A DNA stretch of 64,000 nucleotides from Parcubacteria group bacterium (GTDB taxonomy: Bacteria > Patescibacteriota > Minisyncoccia > Phycocordibacterales > UBA2135): NCBI GenBank assembly GCA_016204005.1, contig JACQLS010000030.1, positions 25,952 through 89,951 on the forward strand, in the 5' to 3' direction. The notes below the pieces were generated by a model. The model made no database searches, was not told where the DNA came from, and saw nothing but the letters and a program-made list of their open reading frames with translations. This document shows, piece by piece, positions 3,021 to 58,831 of the stretch (position 1 is the first letter of the stretch; the number at the start of each line of letters is the position of its first letter). Position numbers and translations under genes: made by a program.

Positions 3021-3022
3021 TT

Positions 3023-3049
3023 AAAACCCCGAGTTAATCGGGGTTTTTC
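3023..3049. terminator. Bidirectional terminator hairpin (aaaaccccga gttaa tcggggtttt) between convergent genes
   Basis: Inverted repeat with flanking A/T runs, read from the sequence. Confidence 0.65.
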
Positions 3050-4029: not shown

Positions 4030-4038
4030 TTTTCCTCC

Positions 4039-5022
4039 TTAGACTGGCGTGTCAATTTTGTGCGGCGGAAGTTGCGGGTGGTAATCTTCCACCTTGAAAT
4101 GCTCGCCACGGAAATCAAAGAAGTTCTTTACGCCGGGGTCGGCCGTTACCGTTGGAAACCGCTCGGCTTGTGTTGCCCCAAGGAACCCCTCTACATCCCT
4201 GATTTGTCTGCGGTAGATGTGGGCGTCTTTGATGATGTACACAACCTTGTCGATGCTATAGCCAGTTTCTGCCGACAACATGAGCGGAAGAATAATACCG
4301 TGTTGGAAGAGATTGAAAGCAAGCCCCACGGGCGCGTCACAACTCCATTGCGTGTGAATATACGTACCGCGACCTGTTTTGGTATCGATGCGGATCATCA
4401 TGTCGCCATGACACGGCACCACCACCACCTTCTGTTGTCTGCCAGTGAGTCGGTAGCAGTATTGCGGGACCCACGGAATTGCCTGGTGGGTACGCAATTC
4501 AGGCCGCTCTTTGATTTGCTGAAGCATTGCCTTAATCTGGTCAAAAGAAGTTCCGTCGCTCATTGGGAAACTGCGATATGCAGGTCCGTATGACCCAGGC
4601 CCCAAATCACCAGGGGGAAGGCCGCGCTTTGCGCACTTCTCGGGAGTTACCCACGGTGCCCACCAGGGGCAGCCGAACGCCTTTAGTTCCTCATGGGTCC
4701 GCGCGCCGTGCATGAAGGCAATGATTTCCCCAGTACCCATTGAGAAGCCCGAACGTCCGGTCTTCGGGTTGGGTGTAACGATATCCCGTTCTGTGACAAG
4801 GGGTGCTCCGTTCGAGAGATCAAATTCCATGACGTGGCCAAAGATCGTAAGGCGTTCCTCATCCATTCCTGACGGCATCCATTTGCCATCCCGCAGAATT
4901 CGATACAGTAGAGTGCGGTATTGCGCATCAGGCGTACGTTTGTCAAAAGGAAGCATATCAATCATTCTTCGCTCCACTTCGCAGGTCTTCCCACAGCGTA
5001 TGTTTTTTTGGAATAAGGTCAA
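4039..5022 (-). CDS. thyA: Thymidylate synthase (ThyA) with N-terminal extension and insertions; true start possibly the internal Met at 4965
   Basis: Aligns to E. coli ThyA: ERLTIFGHVMEFDLSNGAPLVTERDI, GDLGPGSYGPAYRSF, VVVPCHGDMM (catalytic PCH) and TQWSCDAPVGLAFNLFQ (LYQRSCD...PFNIASY). The stop abuts the folA start, the usual thyA-folA arrangement. Confidence 0.8.
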   Translation of the reverse strand: MTLFQKNIRCGKTCEVERRMIDMLPFDKRTPDAQYRTLLYRILRDGKWMPSGMDEERLTIFGHVMEFDLSNGAPLVTERDIVTPNPKTGRSGFSMGTGEIIAFMHGARTHEELKAFGCPWWAPWVTPEKCAKRGLPPGDLGPGSYGPAYRSFPMSDGTSFDQIKAMLQQIKERPELRTHQAIPWVPQYCYRLTGRQQKVVVVPCHGDMMIRIDTKTGRGTYIHTQWSCDAPVGLAFNLFQHGIILPLMLSAETGYSIDKVVYIIKDAHIYRRQIRDVEGFLGATQAERFPTVTADPGVKNFFDFRGEHFKVEDYHPQLPPHKIDTPV

Positions 5023-5057
5023 GTGCCATGTTTTCGTCTGTCGCGGGAGTTGATGGT

Positions 5058-6740
5058 ATGATGGTACTATCTGACGTATTCATGATTCAGAATAAACTCA
5101 AAAACTTGATCAAGGGGGTGATAACAGAACTCGGCATAGAGGCCGAGGATATTCACCTCGAGCATCCGGCAGAGCTTGCGCACGGAGATTACTCAACCAA
5201 TGTCGCAATGGCAGCGGCGAAGATGGCAAAGGTAAACCCAAAAGCATTGGCAGAAAAAATTGCCGCAAAATTGAATGAGAAAAAAGATGAGGATATCGCA
5301 AAAATAGAAGTTGCGGGCCCCGGGTTCATCAACCTCCATCTTTCTTCGTCCTTTTTCGGAAAAAGCATGGGAGAAGCTGTCTCAGAAGGAGACAGTTGGG
5401 GGAGAAACAAGGCATATGAGGGGAAGAAGGTCATGGTGGAATACACTGACCCGAATCCGTTTAAGGAGTTTCATATCGGGCACCTCATGTCGAACGCAAT
5501 CGGCGAGTCCATCGCGCAGCTTATTGAGTTCGGTGGCGCGAAGGTGAAGCGGGCAAACTGGCAGGGTGATGTTGGTCCCCATGTTGCGAAAGCTCTTTGG
5601 GGTAAAATGCAAAAGCCAGGATTGGGTTGGGGAGAGGCGTATGCGTATGGCGCAGGCGAGTACGATGCGCACAAAGAAGAGATAGATACGATAAACCAAA
5701 AGGTGTACGCCAAAAGCGATAGCGCGATAAATGCTTTGTATGATGAAGGCCGCGCAGAATCACTTAAGCGTTTTGAGGAACTATACAAAACACTCGGCAC
5801 GACATTTGACCACTACTTTTTTGAAGGGAAGGAGGGGCTCTTGGGCAAACCAATAGTCGAGGAGTTTTTGAAAAAAGGTGTCTTTGAAGAAAGTGATGGT
5901 GCCGTTGTTTTCAAGGGAGAGAAGTACAATCTTCACACGCGTGTCTTCCTCACGTCGCGTGGTTTGCCCACCTACGAGGCAAAAGAGCTTGGCCTCAACA
6001 AGACAAAGTTTGAAGTGGAACCCGATTTAGACGCTTCAATCATAGTGACTGCAAACGAGCAAACTGATTACTTTAGGGTTGTGCTCAAAGTCATGGAGCT
6101 TATTTTCCCGGAGATTGCCTCCAAGACGACGCATATTGCCCACGGCGTGATGAAATTCGCCTCCGGAAAAATGTCCTCGCGTAAAGGGAATGTTGTTACC
6201 GGCGAATCGCTTCTCTTGGGACTAGAAAAACTCGCGGAACAGAAAATTAATGAAGGCGGGCGTACGGGAGATACCGCTGAGAATCTTGCAGAGGTAGTAG
6301 CCGTGGGCGCCATTAAATACTCGATTCTCAAACAAAATACAGGACGCGACATTGTGTTTGATCCAGAACAGTCGCTTTCTTTTGAAGGAGATTCTGGCCC
6401 CTATCTTCAATACACACATGCGCGGGCGCGCTCCATTTTACGCAAGGCAGAGGAACGCGGCATAGAGCCGCGCGCAGAGGAGAGAGCGGTTGGCGATGTA
6501 GAAAGAATGCTTTATCGCTTCCCTGAAGTTGTAGCGCGTGCATCCAAGGAATACGAGCCACACTATGTAACGACGTACCTTACAGAACTTGCTGGTGCGT
6601 TTAATACATTCTACGCGAAGGAGCGTATTTTAGATGCGGGAGAAGACGCGCCATACCGCGTGTTGCTCACCGAGGCAGTGGCGGTCACGCTTAAAAATGG
6701 CCTCCACCTTTTGGGCATCAAAGCCCCAGAGGTCATGTAA
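5058..6740 (+). CDS. argS: Arginine--tRNA ligase
   Basis: Class I HIGH motif (FHIGHLMSN) and KMSKS-like motif (KMSSRKGNVV); length about 560 aa. Start chosen at the ATG with a GGGAG SD-like element 10 nt upstream; the ORF track allows 5028. Confidence 0.85.
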   Translation: MMVLSDVFMIQNKLKNLIKGVITELGIEAEDIHLEHPAELAHGDYSTNVAMAAAKMAKVNPKALAEKIAAKLNEKKDEDIAKIEVAGPGFINLHLSSSFFGKSMGEAVSEGDSWGRNKAYEGKKVMVEYTDPNPFKEFHIGHLMSNAIGESIAQLIEFGGAKVKRANWQGDVGPHVAKALWGKMQKPGLGWGEAYAYGAGEYDAHKEEIDTINQKVYAKSDSAINALYDEGRAESLKRFEELYKTLGTTFDHYFFEGKEGLLGKPIVEEFLKKGVFEESDGAVVFKGEKYNLHTRVFLTSRGLPTYEAKELGLNKTKFEVEPDLDASIIVTANEQTDYFRVVLKVMELIFPEIASKTTHIAHGVMKFASGKMSSRKGNVVTGESLLLGLEKLAEQKINEGGRTGDTAENLAEVVAVGAIKYSILKQNTGRDIVFDPEQSLSFEGDSGPYLQYTHARARSILRKAEERGIEPRAEERAVGDVERMLYRFPEVVARASKEYEPHYVTTYLTELAGAFNTFYAKERILDAGEDAPYRVLLTEAVAVTLKNGLHLLGIKAPEVM

Positions 6741-6830: not shown

Positions 6831-9800
6831 ATGTCTGACGAGCAAAATTCTCAAAAAAAGAGCGTAGCCGATCTTGAAAGGGAAATACTTCGCTTTTGGC
6901 GGGATAATAAGATTTTTGAGAAATCTCTTGCCAAGAAATCCCCCAAGGGTGAGTATACTTTTTACGATGGCCCTCCGTTCGCGAATGGGCTTCCCCACTA
7001 TGGGCACATTCTCGCCGGTGTCCTGAAAGATGCAATACCGCGTTTTCAGACGATGCGTGGATACCACGTTGCCCGTCGCTGGGGATGGGACTGCCACGGC
7101 CTTCCTGTTGAATACGAGATTGAAAAAGAGCTCGGATTAAAAACAAAGCGCGAGATTGAGGAGTATGGTATCCAGAACTTCAACAAGAAAGCGCGCGAAG
7201 CAATCATGCGTTATGCGGATGACTGGCGGCAGATCATCCCTAAAACAGGACGCTGGGTGGATATGGATCGCGACTACCGTACGATGGATTCTTCCTATAC
7301 CGAATCCGTATGGTGGATATTTAAGTCACTGTACGACAAGGGTCTCGTATATGAGGGGTTCAAGCCGATGCATTTGTGTCCCCGCTGTGAGACAACACTC
7401 TCAAACTTCGAGGTGAGTCAGGGGTACAAAGACATCACCGACATTACCGTCACAGTGCGATTACCGCTCAGTAAGGAGAAAAACACTTCTCTTCTGGTGT
7501 GGACGACTACTCCTTGGACACTCCCCGGAAACATGGCGGCTGCTGTAAACCCAAGCGTCGTCTATGCTAAATATCGTCTCTCTGATCCAGTTGAAGAGTT
7601 TGTCATTATTGCCAAAGATCGAGGGGAGGAAATCCTCAAGGATAAAAAGTATGAGATTGTTGAAGAGTTTATGGGGAATACGCTTGTTGGTCGTGCCTAT
7701 GAGCCGCCATTTTCGTACTACAAAGACGCGCCGCTTAAACACAAGGGAAATGCTTGGAAGGTATATGGAGCGGATTTTGTAACGACGACTGACGGCACAG
7801 GCATTGTGCATATAGCGCCAGCGTTCGGAGAAGACGACCTCAACCTCGCAAAAGAAAACGACATACCGGTTGTGCACCACGTTGGTACCGATGGCAAGTT
7901 TAAGAAAGAAGTTGCAGATTTTGTAGGTGAAAGCGTGAAGCCCGCCAATGATTTGCAAGCCACCGATGTACTCATCCTTAAAAACCTATCTTCTCGAGGA
8001 CTCCTTTTTGCAAAAGAGAAGATACAACACCCATACCCACATTGTTGGCGGTGCGATACTCCACTTTTGAACTACGCGGCAAGCTCATGGTTTGTGCAAG
8101 TCACTGCGATCAAAGACGCATTGGTGAGCGCAAATAAAAAAATATCGTGGGTTCCATCCGACATACGCGATGGGAGATTTGGTAAATGGCTTCTGGGCGC
8201 GCGCGATTGGGCAGTCTCGCGCTCACGTTTTTGGGGAGCGCCAATTCCCGCATGGCGGTGCCAAAAATGTGAACGTGTAGAGATTATCGGATCACTCTCC
8301 GAACTTCAGGAAAGAAGCGCTGATTCAGGCAACACATTCTTTTTAATGCGGCACGGCGAGGCGCGTAGTAATAAGGAGGGGTTTGTGAGTGCCTCAGTGA
8401 GTGCGCGCAACAACCTTACAGAAAAAGGGAAAAGGGAGGTTGATAAAGCCGCGAAATTTTTGCGGCGGCAATCGATCGATCTCATCATCGCTTCTCCGCT
8501 CGAGCGCACAAAAGAAACAGCGTTTCGGACGGCGAAAAACCTCGGATTAAAGAAAGACAAAGTCATTTTCTCGGACCTCATCCGCGAAACGGGCGTTGGC
8601 GTTTTTGAAGGTAAGCCGATTTCAGAATGGCAATCCCAGTTCTCTTCTTTGGAAGACAAATTCAAAATACGTCCCCAGGGAGGTGAGCATATCAATGATA
8701 TAAAGAGCCGAATTATCCCGTTCCTATATGAAACGGATCGCAAGTACACGAAAAAGAATATTCTCATTGTTTCGCATGCTGATCCGCTTTGGGCTCTTTA
8801 CATGGGGGCGCTTGGATATACGGAAAAGCAGGCAATTGAGGTTCATGGTAGGAAAAAGGATTTTATAAAAACAGCAGAAGTAAAAAAACTTGATTTTGCT
8901 CCGTTACCACACGATGAAGCATACACGCTCGATCTCCATCGCCCCTACATCGACGAGTTGAAGTTTAAATGTCTTTGCGGCGGTAAGATGAAGCGTGTTC
9001 CCGAAGTCTTCGACTGTTGGTTCGAGTCTGGAGCCATGCCCTATGGGCAAATGCACTATCCGTTTGAAAATAAGGACATCTTTGACCCAGAAAAGCAACG
9101 AGGATTCCCCGCGCACTTCATTGCGGAAGGGCTCGATCAGACGAGGGGGTGGTTCTATTCCCTCCTGGTCCTTGGGGTTGCGCTCTTTGGAGAGCCAACC
9201 TATAAGAACGTCATCACGAACGGCCTTGTACTCGCAGAAGACGGGCGGAAGATGTCAAAACGGTTAAAAAATTACCCAGAACCGACTGATGTAATAGAGA
9301 AGTACGGCGCAGACGCTTTGCGATTTTACCTCCTTTCCTCACCTGTTGTCCGAGCGGAAGACCTTCGTTTTAGCGAGGAAGGCGTTCGGGAAATACAAAA
9401 CAAGGTAATGAGCCGGCTTCGCAACGTCGTGTCTTTCTATCACATGTATGCTGGAGATACGTCGGATGGCGGAAGTGTTCCGAAATCAAATAACGTGCTC
9501 GACACGTGGGTGAGGGTCCGTCTCACCGAGGTGGTCAATAAAGTCACCGAGGCAATGGAGCAGTACGAGCTCGACAAGGCCGTTCGTCCACTCGCCGAGT
9601 TCATTGACGATCTCTCGACGTGGTATCTTCGCAGATCGCGTGACCGCTTTAAGTCAAAAGACGAGAGTGATAGGAAGAACGCGGTAGCGACAACGCGCTA
9701 CGTTTTAGTGGAGACAGCAAAGCTCATCGCTCCCTTCGCACCTTTTGTTGCGGAAGAAGTGTATCGCTCATTGTCTCCGAATGTGGAAAGTGTACATCTT

Positions 9801-10391
9801 GAAACATGGCCCAAATATGAACCAAGGTTTCCGATTTGGCCAAACCCGATGGCGCTTTTTCACCGCATTTTCCGGTCACACGGCGATATAAAGATTCTTG
9901 AAGACATGGCAGAGGTACGACACATCGTGTCCGTTGCTCTCGAAGCGCGTGCAAGCGCGGGCATTAAGGTGCGTCAACCCCTCGGGAAACTCTCTGTTAA
10001 AAGCAAAAAAACAAAAATCGTCGGCAATGAAGATCTTCTCACGTTAATTAAGGATGAGGTAAACGTAAAAGAGGTCGTGTTCGATTCGTCTATCAGAGAT
10101 GATGTCGAGCTCGACACGGAAATAACCGAAGAGCTAAAAGAAGAGGGGGCACTCCGCGATCTTATTCGTGTTGTTCAGGATTTGCGCAAGAAAGAAGGTT
10201 TGAATCCCGGTGACAACGCTGTTCTCTTGGTTACTGCGGGCGTTTCGGAACAGCAGTTTATAAAGAAATTCGAAGATGAGCTCAAAGATTCGACAACAGT
10301 TGAGATGGTTGAATTTGGCACCGAGATGCGCGGTGAAGAAGTGAAGGTAGATAACTTTACGTTTAACTTGAAGCTAAAAGCTAAAAGCTAA
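6831..10391 (+). CDS. ileS: Isoleucine--tRNA ligase carrying an inserted histidine-phosphatase (PGAM-like, RHGE) domain between the catalytic core and the anticodon-binding region
   Basis: PPFANGLPHYGH (HIGH), KMSKRLKNYPEP (KMSKS) and the N-terminus MSDEQ...LEREILRFW are typical of IleS. Residues ~500-720 contain LMRHGEARSN...SPLERTKETA...IVSHADPLWAL, which are histidine-phosphatase signatures. The ORF track start is 6756 (TTG); 6831 matches homolog N-termini. Confidence 0.85.
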   Translation: MSDEQNSQKKSVADLEREILRFWRDNKIFEKSLAKKSPKGEYTFYDGPPFANGLPHYGHILAGVLKDAIPRFQTMRGYHVARRWGWDCHGLPVEYEIEKELGLKTKREIEEYGIQNFNKKAREAIMRYADDWRQIIPKTGRWVDMDRDYRTMDSSYTESVWWIFKSLYDKGLVYEGFKPMHLCPRCETTLSNFEVSQGYKDITDITVTVRLPLSKEKNTSLLVWTTTPWTLPGNMAAAVNPSVVYAKYRLSDPVEEFVIIAKDRGEEILKDKKYEIVEEFMGNTLVGRAYEPPFSYYKDAPLKHKGNAWKVYGADFVTTTDGTGIVHIAPAFGEDDLNLAKENDIPVVHHVGTDGKFKKEVADFVGESVKPANDLQATDVLILKNLSSRGLLFAKEKIQHPYPHCWRCDTPLLNYAASSWFVQVTAIKDALVSANKKISWVPSDIRDGRFGKWLLGARDWAVSRSRFWGAPIPAWRCQKCERVEIIGSLSELQERSADSGNTFFLMRHGEARSNKEGFVSASVSARNNLTEKGKREVDKAAKFLRRQSIDLIIASPLERTKETAFRTAKNLGLKKDKVIFSDLIRETGVGVFEGKPISEWQSQFSSLEDKFKIRPQGGEHINDIKSRIIPFLYETDRKYTKKNILIVSHADPLWALYMGALGYTEKQAIEVHGRKKDFIKTAEVKKLDFAPLPHDEAYTLDLHRPYIDELKFKCLCGGKMKRVPEVFDCWFESGAMPYGQMHYPFENKDIFDPEKQRGFPAHFIAEGLDQTRGWFYSLLVLGVALFGEPTYKNVITNGLVLAEDGRKMSKRLKNYPEPTDVIEKYGADALRFYLLSSPVVRAEDLRFSEEGVREIQNKVMSRLRNVVSFYHMYAGDTSDGGSVPKSNNVLDTWVRVRLTEVVNKVTEAMEQYELDKAVRPLAEFIDDLSTWYLRRSRDRFKSKDESDRKNAVATTRYVLVETAKLIAPFAPFVAEEVYRSLSPNVESVHLETWPKYEPRFPIWPNPMALFHRIFRSHGDIKILEDMAEVRHIVSVALEARASAGIKVRQPLGKLSVKSKKTKIVGNEDLLTLIKDEVNVKEVVFDSSIRDDVELDTEITEELKEEGALRDLIRVVQDLRKKEGLNPGDNAVLLVTAGVSEQQFIKKFEDELKDSTTVEMVEFGTEMRGEEVKVDNFTFNLKLKAKS

Positions 10392-30311: not shown

Positions 30312-33044
30312 ATGGCAGTTGAAAGAGCCCCCATCCCGCAGCCGTTTACCACACCAGATGCAGAACTCGCGTACTTGCGGGAACGTCTTCGTCTAAAAGA
30401 GCGCGAGCTTGAGACCCGTGGTGAGAGAGATGCTTTAGCGAGAGCTGCAACGGAAACAGTGCAGGAACACGCCGCCCGATCTCCCGAAGAAGTACTTCCA
30501 AAAGAACAAGTGCTCCCCAAGGAGGAAGCTGAAGCTATAGCACTCAATCTTTCACCAGAGAAGCATGATGATCGCATGGGCGAGTTCCTCGGACTCCTTC
30601 AAGAGCGGGGTATTAAAAATGCCCTTTCGGTTATTGAGTCACTCAAGAGTCCTCATCTTGCAGACGATTTTCATCGTTTTTTGATTGCATATGTGAAAGG
30701 AGGGCATTCTGTCTATGGGTTGAAAGAGCGCGGAGAGTTATGGAAGTCACTGCGAATGACGCTCTACGAAGTTTTCTTGCCAGAAGCTGTGAAAGAAGAA
30801 CTTAAGGGGAAGACACTCAAAGAACTCCTCTCTTCTATGGAGCAGTTCTTCGCGGGAATGGCATCTATTTCCGACGTTTCCCCTGATACTACACGCCACT
30901 GGAGCGCTGAGTTGGCGCTCGCAGAGTCTGGGTCGGAAGTTGTTTTTTATGTTGCTGTTCCTGACACAAAGAAAGATCTTTTTGAAAAACAACTTCTTTC
31001 TGTCTTTCCTAAGGCAGAACTTTACGAACAAAAAGATGACTTCAACATCTTTAACGAGGGGGGGATTGCCGTTGGTGCTGTTGGGACATTTAAGCGGGAG
31101 GCGATTCTTCCCCTCAAGACATACGACACCTTTGACTACGATCCTTTGAATATCGTTCTCAACACGTTTTCAAAACTGGCAAAAGACGGAGAAGGCGCGG
31201 CGATACAATTTGTTTTTGAAGCAACGCCCAACTCACTCGTTGGAGACTATCGGAAGACATTGGAAAAAGTAGAGAAGGGAGCGTCACTCAAAGATGCCTA
31301 CGGCGGATCCTTCACCAAGGAGTTCATCAAGGCTTTTGGCGGCATCATGGGCGACAGTCCAAGTAAGGAGAAAGAGAAGCACGTTGATACCGCGGTTGTT
31401 GAGGCGATCCGCGCGAAAATCGCCGCGCCAATCATAAAAGCAAACATTCGCTTAATAGCTGGAGCTGCCGATTCCGCACGGGCGAAAGAAATTTTGAGTG
31501 ATATGGTGTCCGCATTTCGACAATTTGAAAATACGACAGGAAACACCCTTGTTTTTAAAGAAATGGAAGGCGGCAAAAAAGATGTCCTCTTGAAGTCATT
31601 TTCATACCGCTTATTTAACGAGAGCGAATCATTACCCTTGAACCTCCGTGAGGCGACGACTTTGATGCATCTCCCGTCGGCGGGTATTGAATCATCCCCG
31701 CACTTGAAGCAGGCGAAGAGCGGTGGAGCTCCAGCCCCCGTCGCGCTTCCCACAAGCGGCACCCTCTTGGGAGTGAACCACTATAGGAACACCGAAACAA
31801 AAGTATACCTTACGAAAGAAGACCGACTACGACACTTCTACGTCATCGGTCAGACGGGTACAGGAAAGACGACATTATTGAAAAATATGATCGTGCAGGA
31901 CATCCAAGATGGCGACGGTGTCTGCATGATTGACCCCCACGGCACGGACATTCAAGATGTCCTGGGGCTTATTCCCGATCATCGGAAGGAAGACGTCATC
32001 TATTTCGACCCGAGCAATTTGAATCGCGTCATGGGGCTTAACATGCTCGAGTATGACCCACGTTTTCCAGAGCAGAAGACCTTTGTTGTCAACGAGCTTT
32101 TTAGCATTTTCCAAAAGCTCTATGGGGCGGTACCGGAGTCTATGGGGCCCATGTTCGAACAGTACTTCAGAAATGCGACACTCCTTGTTCTTGAGGACCC
32201 TGAATCGGGGAATACACTCCTAGATGTGTCACGCGTGCTCTCGGACGCTACCTTCCGAAAAGCAAAACTTTCGAAATCCAAAAATCCCGTGATCAATCAG
32301 TTCTGGGAGGAAATCGCGGAGAAAACAGGCGGAGAAGCGGCGCTTTCAAACATCGTTCCCTACATCACGAGCAAATTCGACATCTTCACCGCGAACGACT
32401 TTATGCGACCAATCATTGCCCAGTCGAAATCGTCCTTCAACTTCCGCGAGATCATGGACTCTCGAAAGATTCTTCTTGTCAATCTTGCGAAGGGCCGGCT
32501 TGGAGCAATCAACTCGAACCTCCTCGGTCTCATTATTGTCGGAAAGATCCTCATGTCGGCCCTTTCGCGTGTCGACATCGTCGGGAAGGGTGAGGTGGCG
32601 CCGTTTTATCTCTACATCGATGAGTTCCAAAACGTCACGACAGATTCCATCTCAACTATTCTCTCTGAAGCTCGCAAGTATAAGCTTTCGCTCACCGTTG
32701 CCCACCAGTTCATTGCTCAACTCGAGGAAGGTATTCGCAACGCAGTCTTTGGAAACGTTGGTTCAATGGCCGCTTTCCGTGTAGGACCGGAAGATGCCGA
32801 ATTTCTAAAGCAGCAATTTACTCCGATTTTTGGAGCCAACGACCTCATGAATATCGACAATTTCAACGCGTACGTGCGCTTACTCGCGAACGGCCGTCCA
32901 GCGAAGCCGTTTAATATTCGCATTCCTCCGAAGCCGGAAGGCAACCCTGCCCAAGCTGAAGTACTAAAAGAGCTCTCCTCGCTCAAATATGGGCGACCGC
33001 GGGAAGACGTTGAGACCGAGATCGCCACTCGCTACAGCCTTTGA
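30312..33044 (+). CDS. Large soluble P-loop ATPase with a C-terminal VirD4/TrwB/TraD-like (type IV coupling protein-like) NTP-binding domain and a ~470-aa N-terminal domain of unknown function; no TM segments
   Basis: RHFYVIGQTGTGKTT (Walker A), IDPHG, LYIDEFQN (Walker B) and VAHQFIAQL (T4CP Q-motif, compare TrwB GLQSTSQL); 910 aa. Confidence 0.6.
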   Translation: MAVERAPIPQPFTTPDAELAYLRERLRLKERELETRGERDALARAATETVQEHAARSPEEVLPKEQVLPKEEAEAIALNLSPEKHDDRMGEFLGLLQERGIKNALSVIESLKSPHLADDFHRFLIAYVKGGHSVYGLKERGELWKSLRMTLYEVFLPEAVKEELKGKTLKELLSSMEQFFAGMASISDVSPDTTRHWSAELALAESGSEVVFYVAVPDTKKDLFEKQLLSVFPKAELYEQKDDFNIFNEGGIAVGAVGTFKREAILPLKTYDTFDYDPLNIVLNTFSKLAKDGEGAAIQFVFEATPNSLVGDYRKTLEKVEKGASLKDAYGGSFTKEFIKAFGGIMGDSPSKEKEKHVDTAVVEAIRAKIAAPIIKANIRLIAGAADSARAKEILSDMVSAFRQFENTTGNTLVFKEMEGGKKDVLLKSFSYRLFNESESLPLNLREATTLMHLPSAGIESSPHLKQAKSGGAPAPVALPTSGTLLGVNHYRNTETKVYLTKEDRLRHFYVIGQTGTGKTTLLKNMIVQDIQDGDGVCMIDPHGTDIQDVLGLIPDHRKEDVIYFDPSNLNRVMGLNMLEYDPRFPEQKTFVVNELFSIFQKLYGAVPESMGPMFEQYFRNATLLVLEDPESGNTLLDVSRVLSDATFRKAKLSKSKNPVINQFWEEIAEKTGGEAALSNIVPYITSKFDIFTANDFMRPIIAQSKSSFNFREIMDSRKILLVNLAKGRLGAINSNLLGLIIVGKILMSALSRVDIVGKGEVAPFYLYIDEFQNVTTDSISTILSEARKYKLSLTVAHQFIAQLEEGIRNAVFGNVGSMAAFRVGPEDAEFLKQQFTPIFGANDLMNIDNFNAYVRLLANGRPAKPFNIRIPPKPEGNPAQAEVLKELSSLKYGRPREDVETEIATRYSL

Positions 33045-33086
33045 TTTGTTTTATACTGTAGGCATTAGTTACACAACGTTTCCATT

Positions 33087-35435
33087 ATGGCAAACTTCGA
33101 AAGACCAATGAGTACTGGAGGAGCTGAAGGTGCCCCCGAAGCACCACGTCAGGCAACTCGGGCAGAAAAAGCGAAGCTTACGCGGCAGATAAACATACTT
33201 GAGCGTCAATTGGAGAAACTCGCACACGAGGACAGGGAGCAGCCCGGAGCACAAGCGGAGCGCGAGAGAATCGGTGCCGAGCGAAACAGGCTTTGGGATT
33301 TGCGGAATCAGATGGATACGGAAGTTGCCTCCTCTGAAGCGGTATTTCCAAACGTACCCATGGGCGAAGGAACTTTTGATGAAGCCGAGAGTGCGCCCCA
33401 AGAAATGCGCGTTGCTGGGGAGACGTACGAAGATACACCCCCTCCTACTCCCGAAACGCTTCGCCCTGACACGCAAGAAAAAGCAGAAGAGCCCAAGGCG
33501 CACTTCTCTTACAAATGGACTGGCCGTAGGACGGGAGAGCCGGGAGAGGCCGAAGAAATAGCAAGAGAGGAAGCGGAGCGCGAGGAAAAGTTAAGGGCTT
33601 TAGGCAAAAAGACCCCCCAAAAAAACAAGGGGGATATTCCCGTGAGGCAGGAACCTTCAGAACCGGTTGTGTGGGATAGTTCAAAGACAACAGGGAGAAG
33701 GACAAAGGGAGAAGAAGCAATTGATAGCAGAGTAACGGCATTCAAAAAAAAGATTCGTGGTATTGCAGATGGTACGATCCCCGTACCTCTTGCGGGAGAA
33801 ACTCCCGCAAGAGAAACACTCACTGCGGAAGAGGAGCCAACTCCTCTCTATGATGCCGCTGTCAGGGAGGGGTATATCAAAGAGGAACTGAAACCGCGCA
33901 GGAGACGCCAAGCGCTCGTTACACCCAAAGCAGATGCGGAGTTTCCAGGAGAAGTGAGCGAAGCAGAAAGACGGCACCTAGAAGAGCTTGGCCGCATGAC
34001 GCCATGGACGGGTGAAGAGTCTCCCGAAGTCGGAAGAGAAATGACCCCAGAGGAGCAAGGAAGGCGATTAGAGGAATGGTTGGGCGAAATGCAGAACTCC
34101 ATTAGGGCTGAAGCAGAAAGGAAAAGCCTCTGGCAGTATATGAGAGGAGCTTCAGAACGTTATGCGAAACTTCCTTTCTATCAAAAAATTGCTGTTGGAC
34201 TCGCTCTTACAGCAGGTGTTGGAAGTGGAGCACTTCTTGGTGGTCCCGCAGGGCTCGCAATCACGGCGGGTGCAATGGGTGCAAAACTTGGTGTTGGTTT
34301 TCTCACATTCCTTGGCACATACGAAGCTGTCGAGTCGTTGGCGGAACGGTCAAGGGAGAGACAAGTAAAGTTTTGGAACAAATACCCTAGAGTTCTTGGC
34401 GCTGTTGCCGGAGCAATCACGGGGGGCATTTCAGCGTACAGTATCGGGCAGGCTCTTGAATGGGTGGCGGACAATTTCGCATCCAGCGCTACCGAAGGTG
34501 CAGCGCGCGTTGCTGTCGAGGCAGCCGACCGGGGAGGCCAAGTAGTGGCAGAAGTCAGACCGGGCCTCGTAGAACCAAAGGTAGTAACTCCGGAGATGCC
34601 TCCTGCGTCAGATTATGCAGAGGGGTCGGGTGTATATGCCGTTGGAGGAGAAGTGGGTTCCCAAGAAAGTGTTGTCCAGATTGGCGCCGAAGCCGCGCGC
34701 ACTATTACAGCAGAAGTTGCGAAGGGTGACACTGTGTGGGGGCTCTTGAAGAACGGATTAGGAGAGAAGCTCGCAGGGCTTTCCCCAGAACAGCAAACCT
34801 ACGTCATTGATGGGCTCAAAGACAAACTTGCGGCGATGACTCCGGCAGAATTGAAGGACCTCGGTATTAAGAGCGGCAACATTGATCGCATCTTCCCTGG
34901 GCAAAAGCTTGATTTCACGTCTCTCCTTGGGGATTCTTCTCTTGTTGAGAAACTTAAAGCTGGAGCAGAAAACCTTACCGCAGAACAGCTACAGAATATC
35001 CGAGAGGGAGGAGTTGCACTACCCCCCACTCCATTAGCTGAGGCGATGGAGGCGCCTACCGTTGAACAAGCAGCCGAGGTTTTGGAAAAGGGGGCTGAAG
35101 TAGTCGTGAATGAAGAGGCTGGATCCGTGGAACACATGGGCACAGAGGTTTTCTTTGATAAGTCGGCAGCGAACATCTATGAGCAAGGCAACGGCGAGCT
35201 CATAGCTTGGGGCGGCACGGATGATGCAAAAGCGGCGCTTGCGGAACGTATTGCGGGGGAAACGGGGAAGCAAGTGCGTGTGGACGCTTCCATGGGTTCT
35301 TACTATGTAACCCCGGAGGGTTCGCGTGTTTCAATAGAAGAAACATTTAAAAGTTTTGGTGATTGGTGGAGTCGCCTTTGGGGGAACATGCCGGAGCCTG
35401 AAGGAGTGGCCACCATGCTTACGCGTAATAAATAG
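33087..35435 (+). CDS. Large acidic protein (782 aa) with E/R-rich N-terminal region, central glycine-zipper hydrophobic segments and a C-proximal LysM-like peptidoglycan-binding motif
   Basis: GDTVWGLLKNGL...IDRIFPGQKLDF (LysM signature); GLALTAGVGSGALLGGPAGLAITAGAMGAKLGVGFL glycine zipper. Confidence 0.5.
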   Translation: MANFERPMSTGGAEGAPEAPRQATRAEKAKLTRQINILERQLEKLAHEDREQPGAQAERERIGAERNRLWDLRNQMDTEVASSEAVFPNVPMGEGTFDEAESAPQEMRVAGETYEDTPPPTPETLRPDTQEKAEEPKAHFSYKWTGRRTGEPGEAEEIAREEAEREEKLRALGKKTPQKNKGDIPVRQEPSEPVVWDSSKTTGRRTKGEEAIDSRVTAFKKKIRGIADGTIPVPLAGETPARETLTAEEEPTPLYDAAVREGYIKEELKPRRRRQALVTPKADAEFPGEVSEAERRHLEELGRMTPWTGEESPEVGREMTPEEQGRRLEEWLGEMQNSIRAEAERKSLWQYMRGASERYAKLPFYQKIAVGLALTAGVGSGALLGGPAGLAITAGAMGAKLGVGFLTFLGTYEAVESLAERSRERQVKFWNKYPRVLGAVAGAITGGISAYSIGQALEWVADNFASSATEGAARVAVEAADRGGQVVAEVRPGLVEPKVVTPEMPPASDYAEGSGVYAVGGEVGSQESVVQIGAEAARTITAEVAKGDTVWGLLKNGLGEKLAGLSPEQQTYVIDGLKDKLAAMTPAELKDLGIKSGNIDRIFPGQKLDFTSLLGDSSLVEKLKAGAENLTAEQLQNIREGGVALPPTPLAEAMEAPTVEQAAEVLEKGAEVVVNEEAGSVEHMGTEVFFDKSAANIYEQGNGELIAWGGTDDAKAALAERIAGETGKQVRVDASMGSYYVTPEGSRVSIEETFKSFGDWWSRLWGNMPEPEGVATMLTRNK

Positions 35436-38522: not shown

Positions 38523-38927
38523 ATGTTTCGTCATCCCTTTTTCTACTTCCTCTTCTGTCTCCTCATCGTCATTACGGCTATGCATGTTTTTGGTATTATG
38601 TATTTTTGGTATGCCACGTATCCACTCCTTGATCTCGTCTTACATTTTGTTGGCGGTTTCTGGATTGCCGGTATAAGTTTATGGATCTTCTTTTTATCAG
38701 GGGCTTCGCGAGCTTCCTATAAGCAGAAAATACCCAAGGTCCATGTTGTCTTGGGTGTCCTCTTCTTCACCGTAATGATAGGGGCACTGTGGGAAATATT
38801 TGAAGTCATAAACGATATAACGCTCCGAGGATACCCAAAATACGAGTTCGATACGATAACCGATCTTATCGCTGACTCGATGGGGGCCCTCCTTGCTGGC
38901 TGGTATTTTGTCCGACGATATTTGTAA
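38523..38927 (+). CDS. Small integral membrane protein (4 TM), unknown function
   Basis: Hydrophobic segments; no CrcB motif; no other domain recognised. Confidence 0.45.
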   Translation: MFRHPFFYFLFCLLIVITAMHVFGIMYFWYATYPLLDLVLHFVGGFWIAGISLWIFFLSGASRASYKQKIPKVHVVLGVLFFTVMIGALWEIFEVINDITLRGYPKYEFDTITDLIADSMGALLAGWYFVRRYL

Positions 38928-38949
38928 CAGTTCAAAAGCTAGTATCTTA

Positions 38950-40314
38950 ATGAGCAAAGCCAAACTTACATTTTGCGGGGGAGCAGGGGAGGTGACCGGT
39001 TCAAATTTCCTCTTGGAGACCGACGAGGCGAGCGTGCTCGTTGATTGCGGTTTGTTTGAGGGATGCGACACCTGTGGCGACAAAAATGTAGATCCGTTTC
39101 CATACGACCCGAAAAAGATCGATGCCTTGTTTGTGACTCACCCACACGTTGACCACGTAGGGAGGATCCCGAAGCTTGTGAAAGAGGGTTTTCGGGGCAC
39201 AATCTACTCCACTCCGCCCACCAGAGATATTGTCGAGGTTGTCTATGACGACGCACTCAAAATCATGAGAGAAGAAACAGCGAGGACGGGAGCACCACTT
39301 TTATACGGACCGGAAGATGTTACGCAAACACTCGCCTTGTGGGAGACCAGAGAGTATCGGAAAACCTTTGTTGTAAAAGGCCTCACGGCTTCATTTAAAA
39401 ACTCAGGGCATGTTTTAGGTTCTGCGATGGTGGAGCTTGAACGCGGTGGAAAAAAGATCGTCTTTACGGGGGACCTCGGTAACTTCCCATCGCCACTCTT
39501 ACCCGACCCCGATGCGGTGAATGACGCGGACTATCTCGTTATGGAGAGCGTATACGGTGATCGAAACCACGAGGCACGGGATGAGCGCCGTTCTGCGTTG
39601 GAAGATATTATTGAGGAGACATCTCGGAAGAAGGGCGTGCTCATGATTCCAGCCTTTTCTCTTGAGCGCACACAAGCTGTCCTTTACGAAATAGAGCACA
39701 TGGTTGAGGGGCGACAGATCCCACGCATGCCCGTTTTCATTGATTCGCCGCTTGCGATTAAGATTACAGACATTTACAAAAAATATTCATCGACCTACTT
39801 CAATAAAAGTGTGGGGATGGAGTCAAAAGGCGGCAACGGCATTTTTGCATTTGCTGAACTCTCTTTCACAAGGACTTCCGAAGAATCAAAGCACATCCTC
39901 GCTGTTCCGGAGCCGAAAATTATCATTGCGGGAGGAGGTATGTCCGAAGGGGGGCGCATTATCTTCCATGAAAAGCATTATCTGCCTCAACCTAAAAACA
40001 CCCTCCTTATTTTAGGATATCAAGCACCAGGTACCCGCGGCCGTGAAATAGAAGACGGCGCAAAGACCATAGAGATACTCGGGGAAGAGATACCTGTTAA
40101 TGCTCGTATTCGCACTATCAGCGGCTATTCTGCGCACATGGACTCCGAGCATCTCCTTGAGTTTGCGGCGAACGACGCAGATGCGGCAAAAACAATCTTT
40201 GTTGTTATGGGAGAACCCAAGTCAGCTTTCTTCCTGACCCAACGAATACGCGATTATGTAGGGCTCAACGCAGTTGCTCCACAGCGTGGTGACACGTTCC
40301 CTCTAGATTTTTAG
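38950..40314 (+). CDS. MBL-fold beta-CASP family metallo-hydrolase (RNase J / CPSF-like ribonuclease)
   Basis: HPHVDHVGRIP (HxHxDH) plus downstream beta-CASP motifs; start at the internal Met of track ORF 38893. Confidence 0.65.
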   Translation: MSKAKLTFCGGAGEVTGSNFLLETDEASVLVDCGLFEGCDTCGDKNVDPFPYDPKKIDALFVTHPHVDHVGRIPKLVKEGFRGTIYSTPPTRDIVEVVYDDALKIMREETARTGAPLLYGPEDVTQTLALWETREYRKTFVVKGLTASFKNSGHVLGSAMVELERGGKKIVFTGDLGNFPSPLLPDPDAVNDADYLVMESVYGDRNHEARDERRSALEDIIEETSRKKGVLMIPAFSLERTQAVLYEIEHMVEGRQIPRMPVFIDSPLAIKITDIYKKYSSTYFNKSVGMESKGGNGIFAFAELSFTRTSEESKHILAVPEPKIIIAGGGMSEGGRIIFHEKHYLPQPKNTLLILGYQAPGTRGREIEDGAKTIEILGEEIPVNARIRTISGYSAHMDSEHLLEFAANDADAAKTIFVVMGEPKSAFFLTQRIRDYVGLNAVAPQRGDTFPLDF

Positions 40315-45605: not shown

Positions 45606-46055
45606 ATGGCACTCGTGAGTAACAAGAAAGCGTATTTTAATTATGAAATCCAGGAAAAACTGGAGGCGGGTATTGAATTACTCGGTCATGAAGTGAAGAC
45701 CTTGAAAGGCGGTCGCGGCTCGCTTGAGGGGGCATATGTGATTACACGCGGAAATGAAATGTTCTTGGTGAATATGCATATTCCACCCTACCAAGTGGGC
45801 AATGTCGGGAAGGACTACGACCCCTATCGGCTTCGAAAACTGTTGTTAAATAAGAAGGAAATCGCTTTACTCACAGGTGTTGAAAAACAGGGGGGGTTGA
45901 CAATCATGCCACTTTCCGTGTATAATAAAGGAAACAAAGTCAAGGTTGAGATAGGCGTTGCGCGCGGAAAGAAAAAATACGACAAGCGCGAAACATTAAA
46001 GCGCCGTGCTACAGAGCGCGACGTAGCAAGAGAAACAAGGTCGCGTTTGAATTAG
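45606..46055 (+). CDS. smpB: SsrA-binding protein SmpB
   Basis: KAYFNYEIQEKLEAGIELLGHEVKTLK...DPYRLRKLLL. Confidence 0.88.
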   Translation: MALVSNKKAYFNYEIQEKLEAGIELLGHEVKTLKGGRGSLEGAYVITRGNEMFLVNMHIPPYQVGNVGKDYDPYRLRKLLLNKKEIALLTGVEKQGGLTIMPLSVYNKGNKVKVEIGVARGKKKYDKRETLKRRATERDVARETRSRLN

Positions 46056-46440: not shown

Positions 46441-46825
46441 GGGGATGATCGGCTTCGACAAGGGGCGTACTTTGAAACGCGCAGGTAGAGCTGGGATAAC
46501 TCTTAAAAAGGCCCCAAACCATAAGTGCAAACAAATTGCGCTCAATCGTTTCGCCTTACTTTAAGGCGAGCGACTTCGTGTTCGTATACGCTTAAGCGGC
46601 GAACGTGAACGCTCCCACTTTTAATTTCTGGTAGAGAGACGGGAGTGTCATACCACCAGGATAGGCATGCAGATTGCTTCGACTGCTCCGCTGAAACCAA
46701 GAAGCTCGATGCAGTTCGGTTTTGTATGTTTCAGACGCTCTGCATTTAAATCAAAAAACACACTACACCTGTAGATCCGTTTCAATTTTCTCTTTGCATG
46801 CGGGTTCAATTCCCGCCATCTCCAT
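46441..46825 (+). ncRNA. ssrA: tmRNA (transfer-messenger RNA), standard one-piece
   Basis: 5' end GGGGAUGAUCGGCUUCGACAAGGGG matches the tmRNA 5' consensus. 3' end GCGGGTTCAATTCCCGC-CATCTCC-A gives the T-arm plus acceptor 3' strand. The acceptor pairs GGGGAUG/CAUCUCC with a G3:U wobble (alanine identity). It sits immediately downstream of smpB. Confidence 0.85.
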
Positions 46826-46837
46826 CGAATTTTGTTC

Positions 46838-55765: not shown

Positions 55766-55806
55766 TAGAACAAAAACGCAGTAGGTGCCGTATCGGCACC
55801 TTTTTC

Positions 55807-55835
55807 TTGCCATAAATACACCCATATTGTACAAT
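55807..55835 (+). promoter_or_regulatory. Sigma70-like promoter (-35 TTGCCA, 17-nt spacer, -10 TACAAT) ending 6 nt before the ftsH ATG, implying a leaderless transcript
   Basis: Read directly from the sequence. Confidence 0.5.
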
Positions 55836-55841
55836 GCTTTT

Positions 55842-57794
55842 ATGCAAGGTAAGGAGAAAAAAGCAGGGAAAATCGGCAAAAAAATACTAAAAGGGGTTAA
55901 AGAGGGCGGTATGAACCTGTCACCAAGGCAGGGCTTTTTTGGCAACGTGATGACGACACTGGTCATTCTCCTCATGATCGTCTTGGCTGCGTCCCTTTTT
56001 ATGACTGGCGAGAAAAAGACAGAAGAAATCGCAATCTCTCAAGTTGCGAAGGATATCCAAGCGGGAAGTGTGACGAAAGTTGTTGTTGAGGGAGAAGAGA
56101 TCACGCTTACCTACAAGGATGAGGTTACTAAGAAATCAAAGAAAGAACGAGAGACGGCACTCTCAGAGACGCTCGCGAACTACGGCGTGACTGCAGCGGA
56201 ACTTGCAACGATTGAAGTTGAGATCAAGAGAGAATCCGGCTTTTTCTACTGGCTGCTTCAGATAGCACCTTTCCTTTTGCCGCTCATCCTTATCGTTCTC
56301 TTCTTTTGGTACGTTTCGCGCCAAGTCAAAGGGGCGGGGATGCAAGCTTTTACCTTCGGACAGTCGAAGGCGCGCATGATTGATCCGGACGACAAAACAC
56401 AACGGGTACTTTTTAAAGATGTTGCAGGAGTGAAGGAGGCAAAGCACGAACTCGAAGAAGTCGTCGACTTTCTGAAGAGTCCAAAAAAGTTCCTCGACAT
56501 CGGTGCGCGGATCCCCAAGGGAGTGCTTCTCATGGGTGCTCCAGGTACGGGGAAGACGATGCTTGCGCGCGCGGTTGCGGGCGAAGCCAAGGTACCCTTT
56601 TTCTCCATCTCAGGTTCTGAATTTGTGGAGATGTTTGTCGGTGTAGGAGCTTCTCGTGTGCGAGACCTCTTCAAAATGGCAAAGAAAGTTGCTCCAGCAA
56701 TTGTCTTTATCGACGAGATCGACGCTGTCGGTCGTATCCGTGGCACAGGTATGGGTGGTGGGCACGACGAGCGTGAACAAACACTAAACCAAATTTTGGT
56801 AGAGATGGACGGCTTTGAGCCGAACGAGAAAGTAATCGTGATGGCGGCGACTAACCGCCCGGATGTTCTCGATCCCGCACTTCTTCGTCCGGGACGTTTC
56901 GATCGTCGGGTCATTCTTGATTTGCCGGACATTCATGATCGCGAGGCGATCTTGAAGATTCACTCAACCAAGAAGCCGCTCGCGGAGGATGTGAATCTTA
57001 AAATCATTGCGGAACGTACGCCAGGGTTCTCTGGCGCGGATCTGTACTCCCTCATGAACGAAGGAGCGATTCTTGCCGCACGGAACGACAGAAAAACAGT
57101 CACGCAACACGACCTCATTCGCTCGATAGAGAAGGTGATGCTAGGCCCCGAACGGCAGAGCCACCTCCTTTCGAAGAAAGAAAAAGAGATAACCGCTTAC
57201 CACGAGGCTGGGCATGCGCTTGTTGCCTCCATTTTGCCTCACGCGGACCCAGTCCATAAGATCTCGATCGTCTCGCGTGGACATGCGGGCGGCTATACAC
57301 TGAAGCTCCCACTTGAAGAGCGGCGCCTTCAGTCGCGTCGCGAATTTCTCGATGACATTGGTGTGTCACTCGGTGGATATGTTGCCGAAGAAATGATCTT
57401 TGGCGATATTACGACTGGGCCATCAAATGACCTCCAGGTTGGGTCTGCGCTTGCACGTGACATGGTGACAAAGTACGGCATGTCAGATGGGCTTGGGGCT
57501 GTTGCCTATGAAGAATCCGGTGGGCGTTCATACTTGGGACGTACGCGTGGAAGCGCCGATCGAGAATACTCTGAAGATATCTCTGCAAAAATAGACAAAG
57601 AAGTTGCGAAAATTGTTGACCGAGCATTGAAGCAGGTGAAAGAGCTTCTTACAAAACACCGAGATGTTCTCGAAGCGATTGCCCTGGAACTCATCCGTGT
57701 TGAGACACTTGAACGTGCTGAATTCGAAGCGCTCCTCAGGAAACACGGCATAAGCCCGAAGAGTAAAGTTGAGGCAACAGAAAAAACAAAGTAG
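55842..57794 (+). CDS. ftsH: ATP-dependent zinc metalloprotease FtsH
   Basis: [23 protein letters not shown] (AAA Walker A), [12 protein letters not shown] (HExxH). Confidence 0.9.
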
Positions 57795-57828: not shown

Positions 57829-57901
57829 GTGCCCGTAGCTCAATGGTTAGAGCACAGAGCTTATACCTCTGCGGTTCCTGGTTCGAGTCCAGGCGGGCAC
57901 A
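57829..57901 (+). tRNA. tRNA with anticodon UAU (reads AUA; tRNA-Ile2-like)
   Basis: Cloverleaf traced by hand. Acceptor GTGCCCG/CGGGCAC with discriminator A; D-arm GCTC-AATGGTTA-GAGC. Anticodon arm CAGAG-CTTATAC-CTCTG with U33 and A37. T-arm CCTGG-TTCGAGT-CCAGG. No encoded CCA. Confidence 0.75.
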
Positions 57902-57913
57902 TAGAGTTGTATC

Positions 57914-58831
57914 ATGCGTTCCGTATTTGAGAAAAACGGCATAACATGGGTGAAGGTGACCGAGCCCAACAGGGGCGACTTTAAGTTTGTCAAAAACTTA
58001 TTTCCCTTCCACCCGCTTGTCATCGAATCCATCGAGTCGCCGACACTTCACCCAGCGCTCGAACAATACAAAGACCACCTCTTCCTTATTCTCCACTTTC
58101 CAATCATTTACCGTGATGCATCGAAAAACAAAGCAGTGGAGGTGGATTTTCTTATCACTAAGAATACACTTGTGACACTGACATATGAACCATATGCTCA
58201 GCTCGACAAGATGTTTAAGAAGTTCGAGAAAGACGAAGAACTACAAAATGAGCTCTTGGGGGAGCACACCGGGAAGCTCGTCCACGGCACCATTGAATGG
58301 CTCATGAAATCGCTCCTAAACGATCTTGATTTCCTTGAGGAAACAGTGACAGACATTGAAGATAGGATTTTCGAAGAGAAACACGCCTCAATCATTGAAG
58401 AGATCTCGAACGTACGGCGCGACATATTGGATTTTCGCCGGACGACTGCTCCGCATCAGACTATTTTAAAACAGCTTTTGCCCCAGGTTGCGAAGGAATT
58501 TTACGGGAACGATATGGAGCCATATTTCGTGGACCTCGCGAGAAACGAAAGCAAAGTGCGGCACCTCATAGAAAACCACAAGGAGACGATTGAGGCGCTC
58601 CATGCGACAAACGAATCGCTGACCTCAAACAGGGTCTCAAAGATCGTGACGCTTCTCACTATATTCTCGACTATCATTCTGCCGCTCAACTTCATGGCAT
58701 CCCTTTGGGGGATGAACCATGAGTTTTTGCCGCTCCGCGATGGTCCGTATGACTTTTGGGTTCTTCTCACGCTCATGTTTGTCATAGGGGCAACCCTTAT
58801 TATCTACTTCCGTCATATGAAGTGGTTATAG
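57914..58831 (+). CDS. corA: Magnesium/cobalt transporter CorA
   Basis: C-terminal two TM helices with WGMNHEF (GMN motif). Confidence 0.8.
   Translation: MRSVFEKNGITWVKVTEPNRGDFKFVKNLFPFHPLVIESIESPTLHPALEQYKDHLFLILHFPIIYRDASKNKAVEVDFLITKNTLVTLTYEPYAQLDKMFKKFEKDEELQNELLGEHTGKLVHGTIEWLMKSLLNDLDFLEETVTDIEDRIFEEKHASIIEEISNVRRDILDFRRTTAPHQTILKQLLPQVAKEFYGNDMEPYFVDLARNESKVRHLIENHKETIEALHATNESLTSNRVSKIVTLLTIFSTIILPLNFMASLWGMNHEFLPLRDGPYDFWVLLTLMFVIGATLIIYFRHMKWL

Follow-up and report, generated by a model that had tools for sequence, protein, structure and literature searches.

A 64,000-nucleotide stretch of DNA from a Parcubacteria group bacterium (the window, by which the whole of this stretch is meant) was analysed with regard to a tRNA gene located between ftsH and corA. 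The gene was confirmed as a genuine tRNA-Ile gene with a genomically encoded UAU anticodon, and we consider it likely that it acts as the functional, single-copy AUA-decoding isoleucine tRNA ('tRNA-Ile3' type) of Paceibacteria (Parcubacteria, OD1), the class within the candidate phyla radiation (CPR) to which the window genome belongs. Comparison of related loci showed that the class inherited the gene from its ancestor and has kept it downstream of ftsH, and the whole class apparently reads AUA directly, not via lysidine.

The tRNA-Ile(UAU) gene and its conservation

Two RNA genes were detected in the window by ARAGORN, one transfer-messenger RNA (tmRNA) gene and one tRNA-Ile gene with the anticodon (tat) at position 34, the latter spanning exactly positions 57829-57901 on the forward strand; there was no second tRNA. 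The same interval was matched end to end by the Rfam model RF00005 (model positions 1-71, 71.9 bits, E 9.6e-14, gathering score 29), and no pair in it was flagged as non-canonical. The gene has the sequence GTGCCCG-TA-GCTC-AATGGTTA-GAGC-A-CAGAG-CTTATAC-CTCTG-CGGTT-CCTGG-TTCGAGT-CCAGG-CGGGCAC-A, all 21 of its 21 stem pairs are standard, and the anticodon loop consists of C32 U33 U34 A35 U36 A37 C38. As this 7-nt loop is closed by a 5-bp anticodon stem (CAGAG/CUCUG), the register of the anticodon is unambiguous. The clean cloverleaf with loop CUUAUAC (U33, UAU, A37) that an earlier note had folded by hand, and its reading as a tRNA-Ile with a genomic UAU anticodon, were borne out by both programs at identical coordinates and in the same register; of the tools proposed there for a check, tRNAscan-SE or ARAGORN, the latter was run and placed TAT at positions 57862-57864. 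Sequence features are also consistent with an isoleucine identity, that is, with charging by isoleucyl-tRNA synthetase (IleRS).

Related loci were collected by a scan with the FtsH protein, with one genome per GTDB species, which yielded 80 loci (L001-L080; FtsH identity 63-73%). Most were labelled Nomura-, Yonath-, Taylor-, Adler-, Kaiser- or Zambryskiibacteria, Paceibacterota, Minisyncoccia or Parcubacteria/Patescibacteria group, and the labels of the remainder were unspecific or inconsistent, 'uncultured Candidatus Saccharibacteria bacterium' being one example. In 71 of these loci, a tRNA-Ile(tat) gene was called by ARAGORN. Together with the window, this gave an alignment of 72 copies (63 distinct), in every one of which the gene lies 3' of ftsH at a distance of 12-8197 nt; in 23 loci it is found on the same strand within 125 nt of ftsH. 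Among the nine loci without the gene, the contig ends less than 3 kb beyond ftsH in seven (in five of them after about 1 kb or less), and one, L023, lacks it despite 4.5 kb of such sequence.

Positions 32-37 (CUUAUA) and A73 are invariant in all 72 copies. U34 is likewise found throughout, with no C34 variant seen among the 72, and position 38 is C in 68 copies and U in four. The cloverleaf is paired in 99.5% of cells across the alignment and compensatory changes on both sides occur in 16 of the 21 pairs. The covariation score amounted to 0.714, as compared to 0.173 +/- 0.010 after column shuffling (0/500 shuffles reached 0.714) and to at most 0.132 when the pairing partners were slid by 1-3 columns. 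U12-A23 is invariant, and C4-G69 is present in 54 of the 63 distinct copies. This pattern of conservation and covariation marks an essential tRNA that is maintained by purifying selection. The suggestion of the earlier note that the gene says something specific about how this lineage decodes AUA was upheld, the gene being linked to ftsH in 71/80 related Paceibacteria genomes and maintained there by purifying selection. Two further features were apparent from the alignment: 34 of the 63 distinct tRNAs start with C1-G72 instead of G1-C72, and CCA is encoded in only about 7 of the 72 copies.

Isoleucyl-tRNA synthetase and decoding of AUA

AUA accounts for 184 of the 19,033 codons in 63 long open reading frames (ORFs) of the window (9.7 per 1000; 16% of the isoleucine codons) and for 980 of the 4,008 isoleucine codons (24%) across 81 copies of the essential gene ftsH, 79 of which use it. 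At AUA columns of the FtsH alignment, the residues found in other genomes are isoleucine (0.53), valine (0.16), leucine (0.13) and methionine (0.03), a profile equal to that of AUU and AUC columns. AUA was thereby shown to specify isoleucine with no reassignment, and an efficient reader is needed for it. The codon count proposed in the earlier note thus identified AUA as a well-used isoleucine codon of the lineage.

An IleRS gene is located in the same window. Its product is 100% identical to the NCBI protein P0001 ('Parcubacteria group bacterium'), which starts at position 6831. The next-best NCBIfam models after TIGR00392 were those of the mupirocin-resistant enzymes MupA and MupB, which are type-2 enzymes. 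Alignment with chains from the PDB gave 713-753 bits for type 2 (Thermus 1ILE, yeast 7D5C/8WND, Priestia IleRS2 8C8U, Candida 6LDK) and 257-309 bits for type 1 (1FFY, 8C9E, 8WNF). At the C-terminus, PF19302 (DUF5915) was assigned to residues 1117-1208; since no Zn-finger domain was reported by Pfam, a solution of the Mycoplasma mobile type, with an arginine in the Zn-binding domain, is inapplicable to this enzyme.

In yeast IleRS, the wobble base N34 is read by Gln996, Arg999 and Leu1004: Arg999 contacts a carbonyl group, O6 of G or I and O4 of U or pseudouridine (Ψ), which C does not offer, and Gln996 can form an extra bond to Ψ34 (PMC11685878, Chen et al. 2024). In addition, Arg739 reads A35 and U36, and Arg736 stacks on C32 (PMC11685878). 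By alignment to 8WND, the window IleRS has VQDLRKKEGL opposite yeast IQKLRKKCGL and WYLRRSR opposite yeast WYIRFNR; all 120 of the closest IleRS relatives retain the Q-x-x-R motif, and 119 of these also W[YF]xRRSR. The tRNA positions facing these residues (C32, U34, A35 and U36) are among the invariant ones. The comparison shows the predicted enzyme to be of type 2 with its putative readers of N34, A35, U36 and C32 intact, and by homology only it should be able to accept U34. A complete histidine-phosphatase domain (Pfam His_Phos_1, PF00300; residues 529-695, 105 bits) lies as an insertion within the catalytic core, separating its two halves (positions ~8340-8840), and is common to all 120 closest homologues (52-100% identity, ~1150-1230 residues). 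The IleRS gene in a published Paceibacteria table bears the Prokka label 'phosphoglycerate mutase GpmB', and a literature search returned no report of IleRS combined with a histidine phosphatase.

The ftsH stop codon lies 34 nt upstream of the tRNA gene and corA starts 12 nt downstream of its end. Because no promoter- or terminator-like site was found between the three genes, the tRNA is probably co-transcribed with ftsH and corA and cut from the common transcript, after which CCA would be added post-transcriptionally. Judging by the homology described above, charging would be performed by the type-2 IleRS of the same window, whose Arg999 equivalent is predicted to form a hydrogen bond with O4 of U34, as with O6 of G34, an interaction impossible with C34. 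Since this residue would bond to the carbonyl of U34 or G34 and not to C34, one enzyme could serve both tRNA-Ile(GAU) and tRNA-Ile(UAU) and reject tRNA-Met(CAU), with no modification of C34 needed. On the ribosome, U34 would pair directly with the A of AUA, and A37 following U36, together with the presence of TsaD in a relative, points to t6A37. The tRNA would in this way most likely replace the lysidine system of TilS and tRNA-Ile2(CAU).

Invariant C32 and the pyrimidine at position 38 may tune the avoidance of AUG. The 32-38 pair is known to tune decoding, and E. coli tRNA-Ile has A38, unlike the Paceibacteria tRNA; as a speculation, C32/pyrimidine-38 could lower codon affinity enough to disfavour U-G wobble. 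AUG would most likely be avoided through a U34-G pairing that is intrinsically weak on the ribosome and competition by tRNA-Met, by analogy with M. mobile and a B. subtilis suppressor. The M. mobile tRNA-Ile(UAU) has an unmodified U34 and t6A37, and its ribosome discriminates AUA from AUG (PMC3575796); the UAU suppressor of B. subtilis also has an unmodified U34 and binds AUG weakly (PMC3919564). The earlier note held that a UAU tRNA must be modified if it is not to read AUG, which is therefore not generally true.

A bolder proposal, which we hold only tentatively and regard as rather unlikely, is that Paceibacteria, with thousands of species, are the largest bacterial clade to have abandoned lysidine wholly and keep AUA and AUG apart by undescribed means. 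Candidates for the latter are codon affinity tuned by the C32/pyrimidine-38 loop, a novel modification of U34 and the histidine-phosphatase insertion of IleRS.

The lysidine system and alternative explanations

The window and the 80 ftsH-centred loci (1.34 Mb) were searched for components of the lysidine system. They contain 107 tRNAs: 72 Ile(tat), 24 Ser(gct), nine Ser(act), one Arg(gcg) and one Ser(cga), with no tRNA(cat) and likewise no GAU tRNA among them. A scan of this DNA for the PP-loop motif SGGxDS returned only a probable GMP synthase (GuaA, by motif context) and one unrelated ORF. A TilS hidden Markov model (HMM), built from 13 control TilS N-domains, matched 20 times in the control contigs (0.75 Mb), and on the 1.34 Mb of Paceibacteria DNA its only match was marginal (the same GuaA-like ORF, E 0.0017).

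The control contigs came from metagenomes that were scanned for tRNAs with the anticodon CAU and either pyrimidine at position 38; apart from these contigs, the scan returned mostly elongator tRNA-Met-like tRNA(CAU) genes of other phyla. Clusters of the order tRNA(CAU)-tilS-ftsH were present on contigs L101, L105 (positions 3019-5844), L130, L138, L156, L159 and L172, and five TilS proteins tested from this control set scored 181-195 bits on TIGR02432 (cut-off 93.6). The use of these loci as a Patescibacteria TilS seed was rejected, as they proved to be Omnitrophota (judged from the TilS homologues of L105, the one locus searched); they serve as positive controls instead. The genes for AUA decoding are thus linked to ftsH in these compact clusters too, but in another order. 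Several of the control tRNA(CAU) genes have the unusual T-loop GGTTTAAATCC.

Where present, tilS is often located directly beside ftsH, and tilS-hpt-ftsH is a common operon; beside the Paceibacteria ftsH, the UAU tRNA is found instead. Upstream of ftsH, the relatives usually have smpB together with the tmRNA gene, or else infC; neither hpt nor tilS occurs there in any of them. In the window, a 407-residue ORF upstream of ftsH was suspected to be tilS and was rejected as alanine dehydrogenase.

Published gene tables were consulted for two further genomes. Minisyncoccus archaeiphilus, the first cultured member of Paceibacteria, has a complete genome (AP038758; 1305 coding sequences, 44 tRNAs), and the first ~600 of the 1305 coding sequences in its table include no K04075, no PF01171 and no 'lysidine'. 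K04075 is equally absent from ~850 features in the table of PMX_810_sub, a Nealsonbacteria-like metagenome-assembled genome. These features comprise one tRNA-Ile(gat), two tRNA-Met(cat) and TsaD, with MnmE and MnmG not listed; among the annotated ORFs of the window, no MnmE, MnmG, MnmA or CmoA/B was found. One gene of the same genome, PMX_810_sub_00091, is labelled 'tRNA(Ile)-lysidine synthase' by Prokka and was rejected as a TilS candidate, since UniRef and Pfam make its product a PP-loop N-acetyl-sugar amidotransferase; the gene lies within a glycan gene cluster (PMC10936435 supplement). Automatic TilS labels in CPR genomes can thus be false positives.

The earlier note had suggested a genome search for tilS and a separate tRNA-Ile(CAU), whose presence would make the UAU tRNA redundant or a pseudogene. 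Neither was found in the window and ~1.3 Mb of related, ftsH-centred DNA, the part of these genomes that the search covered. On this evidence, we lean towards a loss of tilS in the lineage.

The possibility of a redundant decoder, in which TilS and tRNA-Ile2(CAU) are kept elsewhere in the genome and tRNA-Ile(UAU) acts as a parallel reader of AUA, draws on the limitation of the TilS search to part of the genomes and on precedents: the two systems are proposed to occur side by side in Lactobacillus casei, L. plantarum, Cyanothece and Ferrimonas (PMC3575796), and type-2 IleRS coexists with TilS in many bacteria (bioRxiv 10.64898/2026.02.03.703510). A redundant tRNA would, however, be expected to drift or vanish, and yet the 72 copies show no variation at U34 or anywhere in the loop from position 32 to 37, and nearly all loci whose contig extends far enough beyond ftsH have the gene. 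Together with the failure to find TilS or tRNA-Ile2(CAU) in the 1.34 Mb of Paceibacteria DNA, and TilS in the two table portions, this makes redundancy unlikely in our view. An altered code, with the UAU tRNA reading AUA as another amino acid or reading AUA and AUG alike, was considered because a U34 that carries no modification could, in principle, form a wobble pair with G. It is made very improbable by the AUA columns of FtsH, which hold I/V/L with 3% methionine and are indistinguishable from AUU/AUC columns, by the presence of A35, U36 and A73 along with a matching anticodon-reading site in IleRS, and by the weak binding of AUG by UAU anticodons in M. mobile and B. subtilis (PMC3575796; PMC3919564).

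Conservation, synteny and covariation exclude a chance fold, a pseudogene and a recent import by a mobile element. For a chance fold, a mis-registered anticodon or a pseudogene, only the missing encoded CCA could be adduced, which is normal for many bacteria; ARAGORN and Rfam agree on coordinates and anticodon, all stem pairs are standard and strong covariation among the 63 distinct orthologues had already refuted the idea, to which we attach virtually no credence. Acquisition of the tRNA via a phage or mobile element, outside the core decoding set, might be suspected from the VirD4/TraG-like coupling protein encoded in the window. The tRNA nevertheless lies between the housekeeping genes ftsH and corA, the ftsH-tRNA linkage is kept at FtsH identities of 63-73% and the base composition of the window is flat, so that a mobile origin deserves very little weight.

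Direct decoding of AUA by tRNA-Ile(UAU) is the reading we prefer, and four points count against it. The absence of tilS and tRNA-Ile2(CAU) rests on ~1.3 Mb around ftsH and on parts of two published tables, and tRNA-Ile(tat) is itself not listed among the ~850 PMX_810_sub features. Moreover, about half of all bacteria have a type-2 IleRS and yet use TilS (bioRxiv 10.64898/2026.02.03.703510); the IleRS type is compatible with UAU decoding and permits it, but is not diagnostic of it. Finally, aminoacylation, the modification state of U34 and the discrimination between AUA and AUG are all argued from homology.

Other features and comparison with known systems

The features of the window are compiled in Table 1. 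The true start of ftsH is probably located downstream of the start of its ORF. The smpB and tmRNA genes usually lie just upstream of ftsH in the relatives, most of whose tmRNA tags contain SPYF or SPFF and usually have A as the last residue, after an aromatic or aliphatic one. An indoleamine 2,3-dioxygenase homologue was unexpected in a reduced CPR genome. The beta-CASP RNase is similar to archaeal aCPSF1 (288 bits) and to the NCBIfam model 'type VII CRISPR-associated Cas14' (402 bits), both below the respective cut-offs. Given its thyA/DHFR context, the 281-residue deaminase-family protein is probably a dCMP deaminase and not a tRNA deaminase.

Table 1. Coordinates of features in the window (strand; supporting evidence or remarks).
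Feature	Position	Strand	Evidence or remarks
Indoleamine 2,3-dioxygenase homologue	111-1391	+	Pfam IDO, 202 bits
Cytidine/deoxycytidylate-deaminase-family protein, 281 residues	2175-3020	+	near the DHFR-HIT fusion
DHFR-HIT domain fusion	3049-4029	-	beside thymidylate synthase
ileS, type-2 (eukaryote/archaeal-like) IleRS	6831-10391	+	TIGR00392, 895 bits; longest ORF from 6756
IleRS motif WYLRRSR (yeast Arg736, Arg739)	9621-9641	+	HMMER alignment to 8WND
IleRS motif VQDLRKKEGL (yeast Gln996/Arg999/Leu1004)	10173-10202	+	HMMER alignment to 8WND
VirD4/TraG/HerA-like coupling ATPase, 910 residues (30312-33044), then 782-residue ORF	30312-35435	+	782-residue ORF without Pfam/NCBIfam match
Beta-CASP/metallo-beta-lactamase RNase	38893-40314	+
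smpB	45606-46055	+	next to tmRNA gene
tmRNA, tag ANKLRSIVSPYFKASDFVFVYA	46441-46827	+	Rfam, 121 bits
ftsH	55785-57794	+	TIGR01241 FtsH, 792 bits
tRNA-Ile(UAU), 73 nt, discriminator A73, no encoded CCA	57829-57901	+	ARAGORN, Rfam RF00005, 71 orthologues
Anticodon TAT (U34 A35 U36) in loop CTTATAC (57860-57866)	57862-57864	+	sequence
corA (Mg2+/Co2+ transporter)	57914-58831	+	Pfam CorA, 175 bits; TIGR00383

Nine of the related loci have a tRNA-Ser gene whose encoded anticodon is ACT, within the loop TTACTAA: L009 (13968-14057), L014 (16256-16343), L021 (20153-20242), L024, L025, L033, L053, L055 and L068. Its anticodon stem shows compensatory changes, and it is found within ~210 nt of tRNA-Ser(GCT) in seven of the nine loci and at a distance of ~2.3-2.5 kb in L053 and L068. 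An encoded A34 is unusual in bacteria outside tRNA-Arg(ACG), and inosine at position 34 of tRNA-Ser(ACT) would misread AGA.

TilS is usually seen as a nearly universal, essential and bacteria-specific enzyme and is one of the 120 GTDB marker genes. If direct UAU decoding holds class-wide, it would be common in nature rather than exceptional, and Paceibacteria would provide a deep natural test case both for the evolutionary route between UAU and lysidine systems and for the separation of isoleucine from methionine by type-2 IleRS and the ribosome. Estimates of genome completeness and tRNA annotation would be affected, and inhibitors targeting TilS would be ineffective on Paceibacteria. With Minisyncoccus archaeiphilus in culture, the question is open to experiment.

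The tRNA-Ile(UAU) itself was already known from bacteria. It has been described in nine tilS-less species from three clades and in a few species with both systems (Taniguchi et al. 2013, PMC3575796). File S5 of tRNAscan-SE 2.0 lists 17 genomes with this tRNA, comprising Bifidobacterium adolescentis, M. mobile together with haemoplasmas, and Neorickettsia, and a 2026 preprint speaks of 'rare cases' (bioRxiv 10.64898/2026.02.03.703510). No literature linking CPR, Patescibacteria, Parcubacteria or Saccharibacteria to tilS, lysidine or a UAU tRNA-Ile was found in a search that left subscription journals mostly uncovered.

The canonical TilS-lysidine system has the same task, reading AUA as isoleucine without reading AUG, and its genes in the Omnitrophota controls likewise lie beside ftsH; it differs in that the anticodon is TAT, not CAT, in the window and all its orthologues (72 copies). 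M. mobile and the haemoplasmas also read AUA with a UAU anticodon, in the same U33-UAU-A37 context as in the window tRNA, but M. mobile relies on an IleRS of type 1, in which Arg865 was gained in the Zn-binding domain. The cytoplasmic tRNA-Ile(UAU) of eukaryotes (ΨAΨ) is served by an IleRS2 with the same kind of C-terminal domain, Gln996 and Arg999 of which are conserved in the window; in yeast, however, Ψ34 and Ψ36 depend on an intron and this modification raises charging 40-fold, whereas the window gene is intron-free. The archaea Nanoarchaeum equitans and Korarchaeum cryptofilum, with tRNA-Ile3(UAU), are also devoid of tRNA-Ile2(CAU).

The closest analogue of the Paceibacteria system is the arrangement of Bifidobacterium and Neorickettsia, not that of M. 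mobile. These bacteria are tilS-less and combine tRNA-Ile(TAT) with a eukaryote-type IleRS (PMC3575796), and both components, the genomic TAT of B. adolescentis and Neorickettsia and a type-2 IleRS, are also present in the window. The absence of tilS is documented there, whereas in Paceibacteria it was tested on ~1.3 Mb only. Furthermore, their trait is confined to single species or genera, whereas that of Paceibacteria spans a class-level radiation at a fixed position after ftsH, and their IleRS differs from the Paceibacteria enzyme with its histidine-phosphatase insertion. What is new in Paceibacteria is thus the class-level scale, the conserved position after ftsH and the pairing with an IleRS2 that bears a class-specific insertion.

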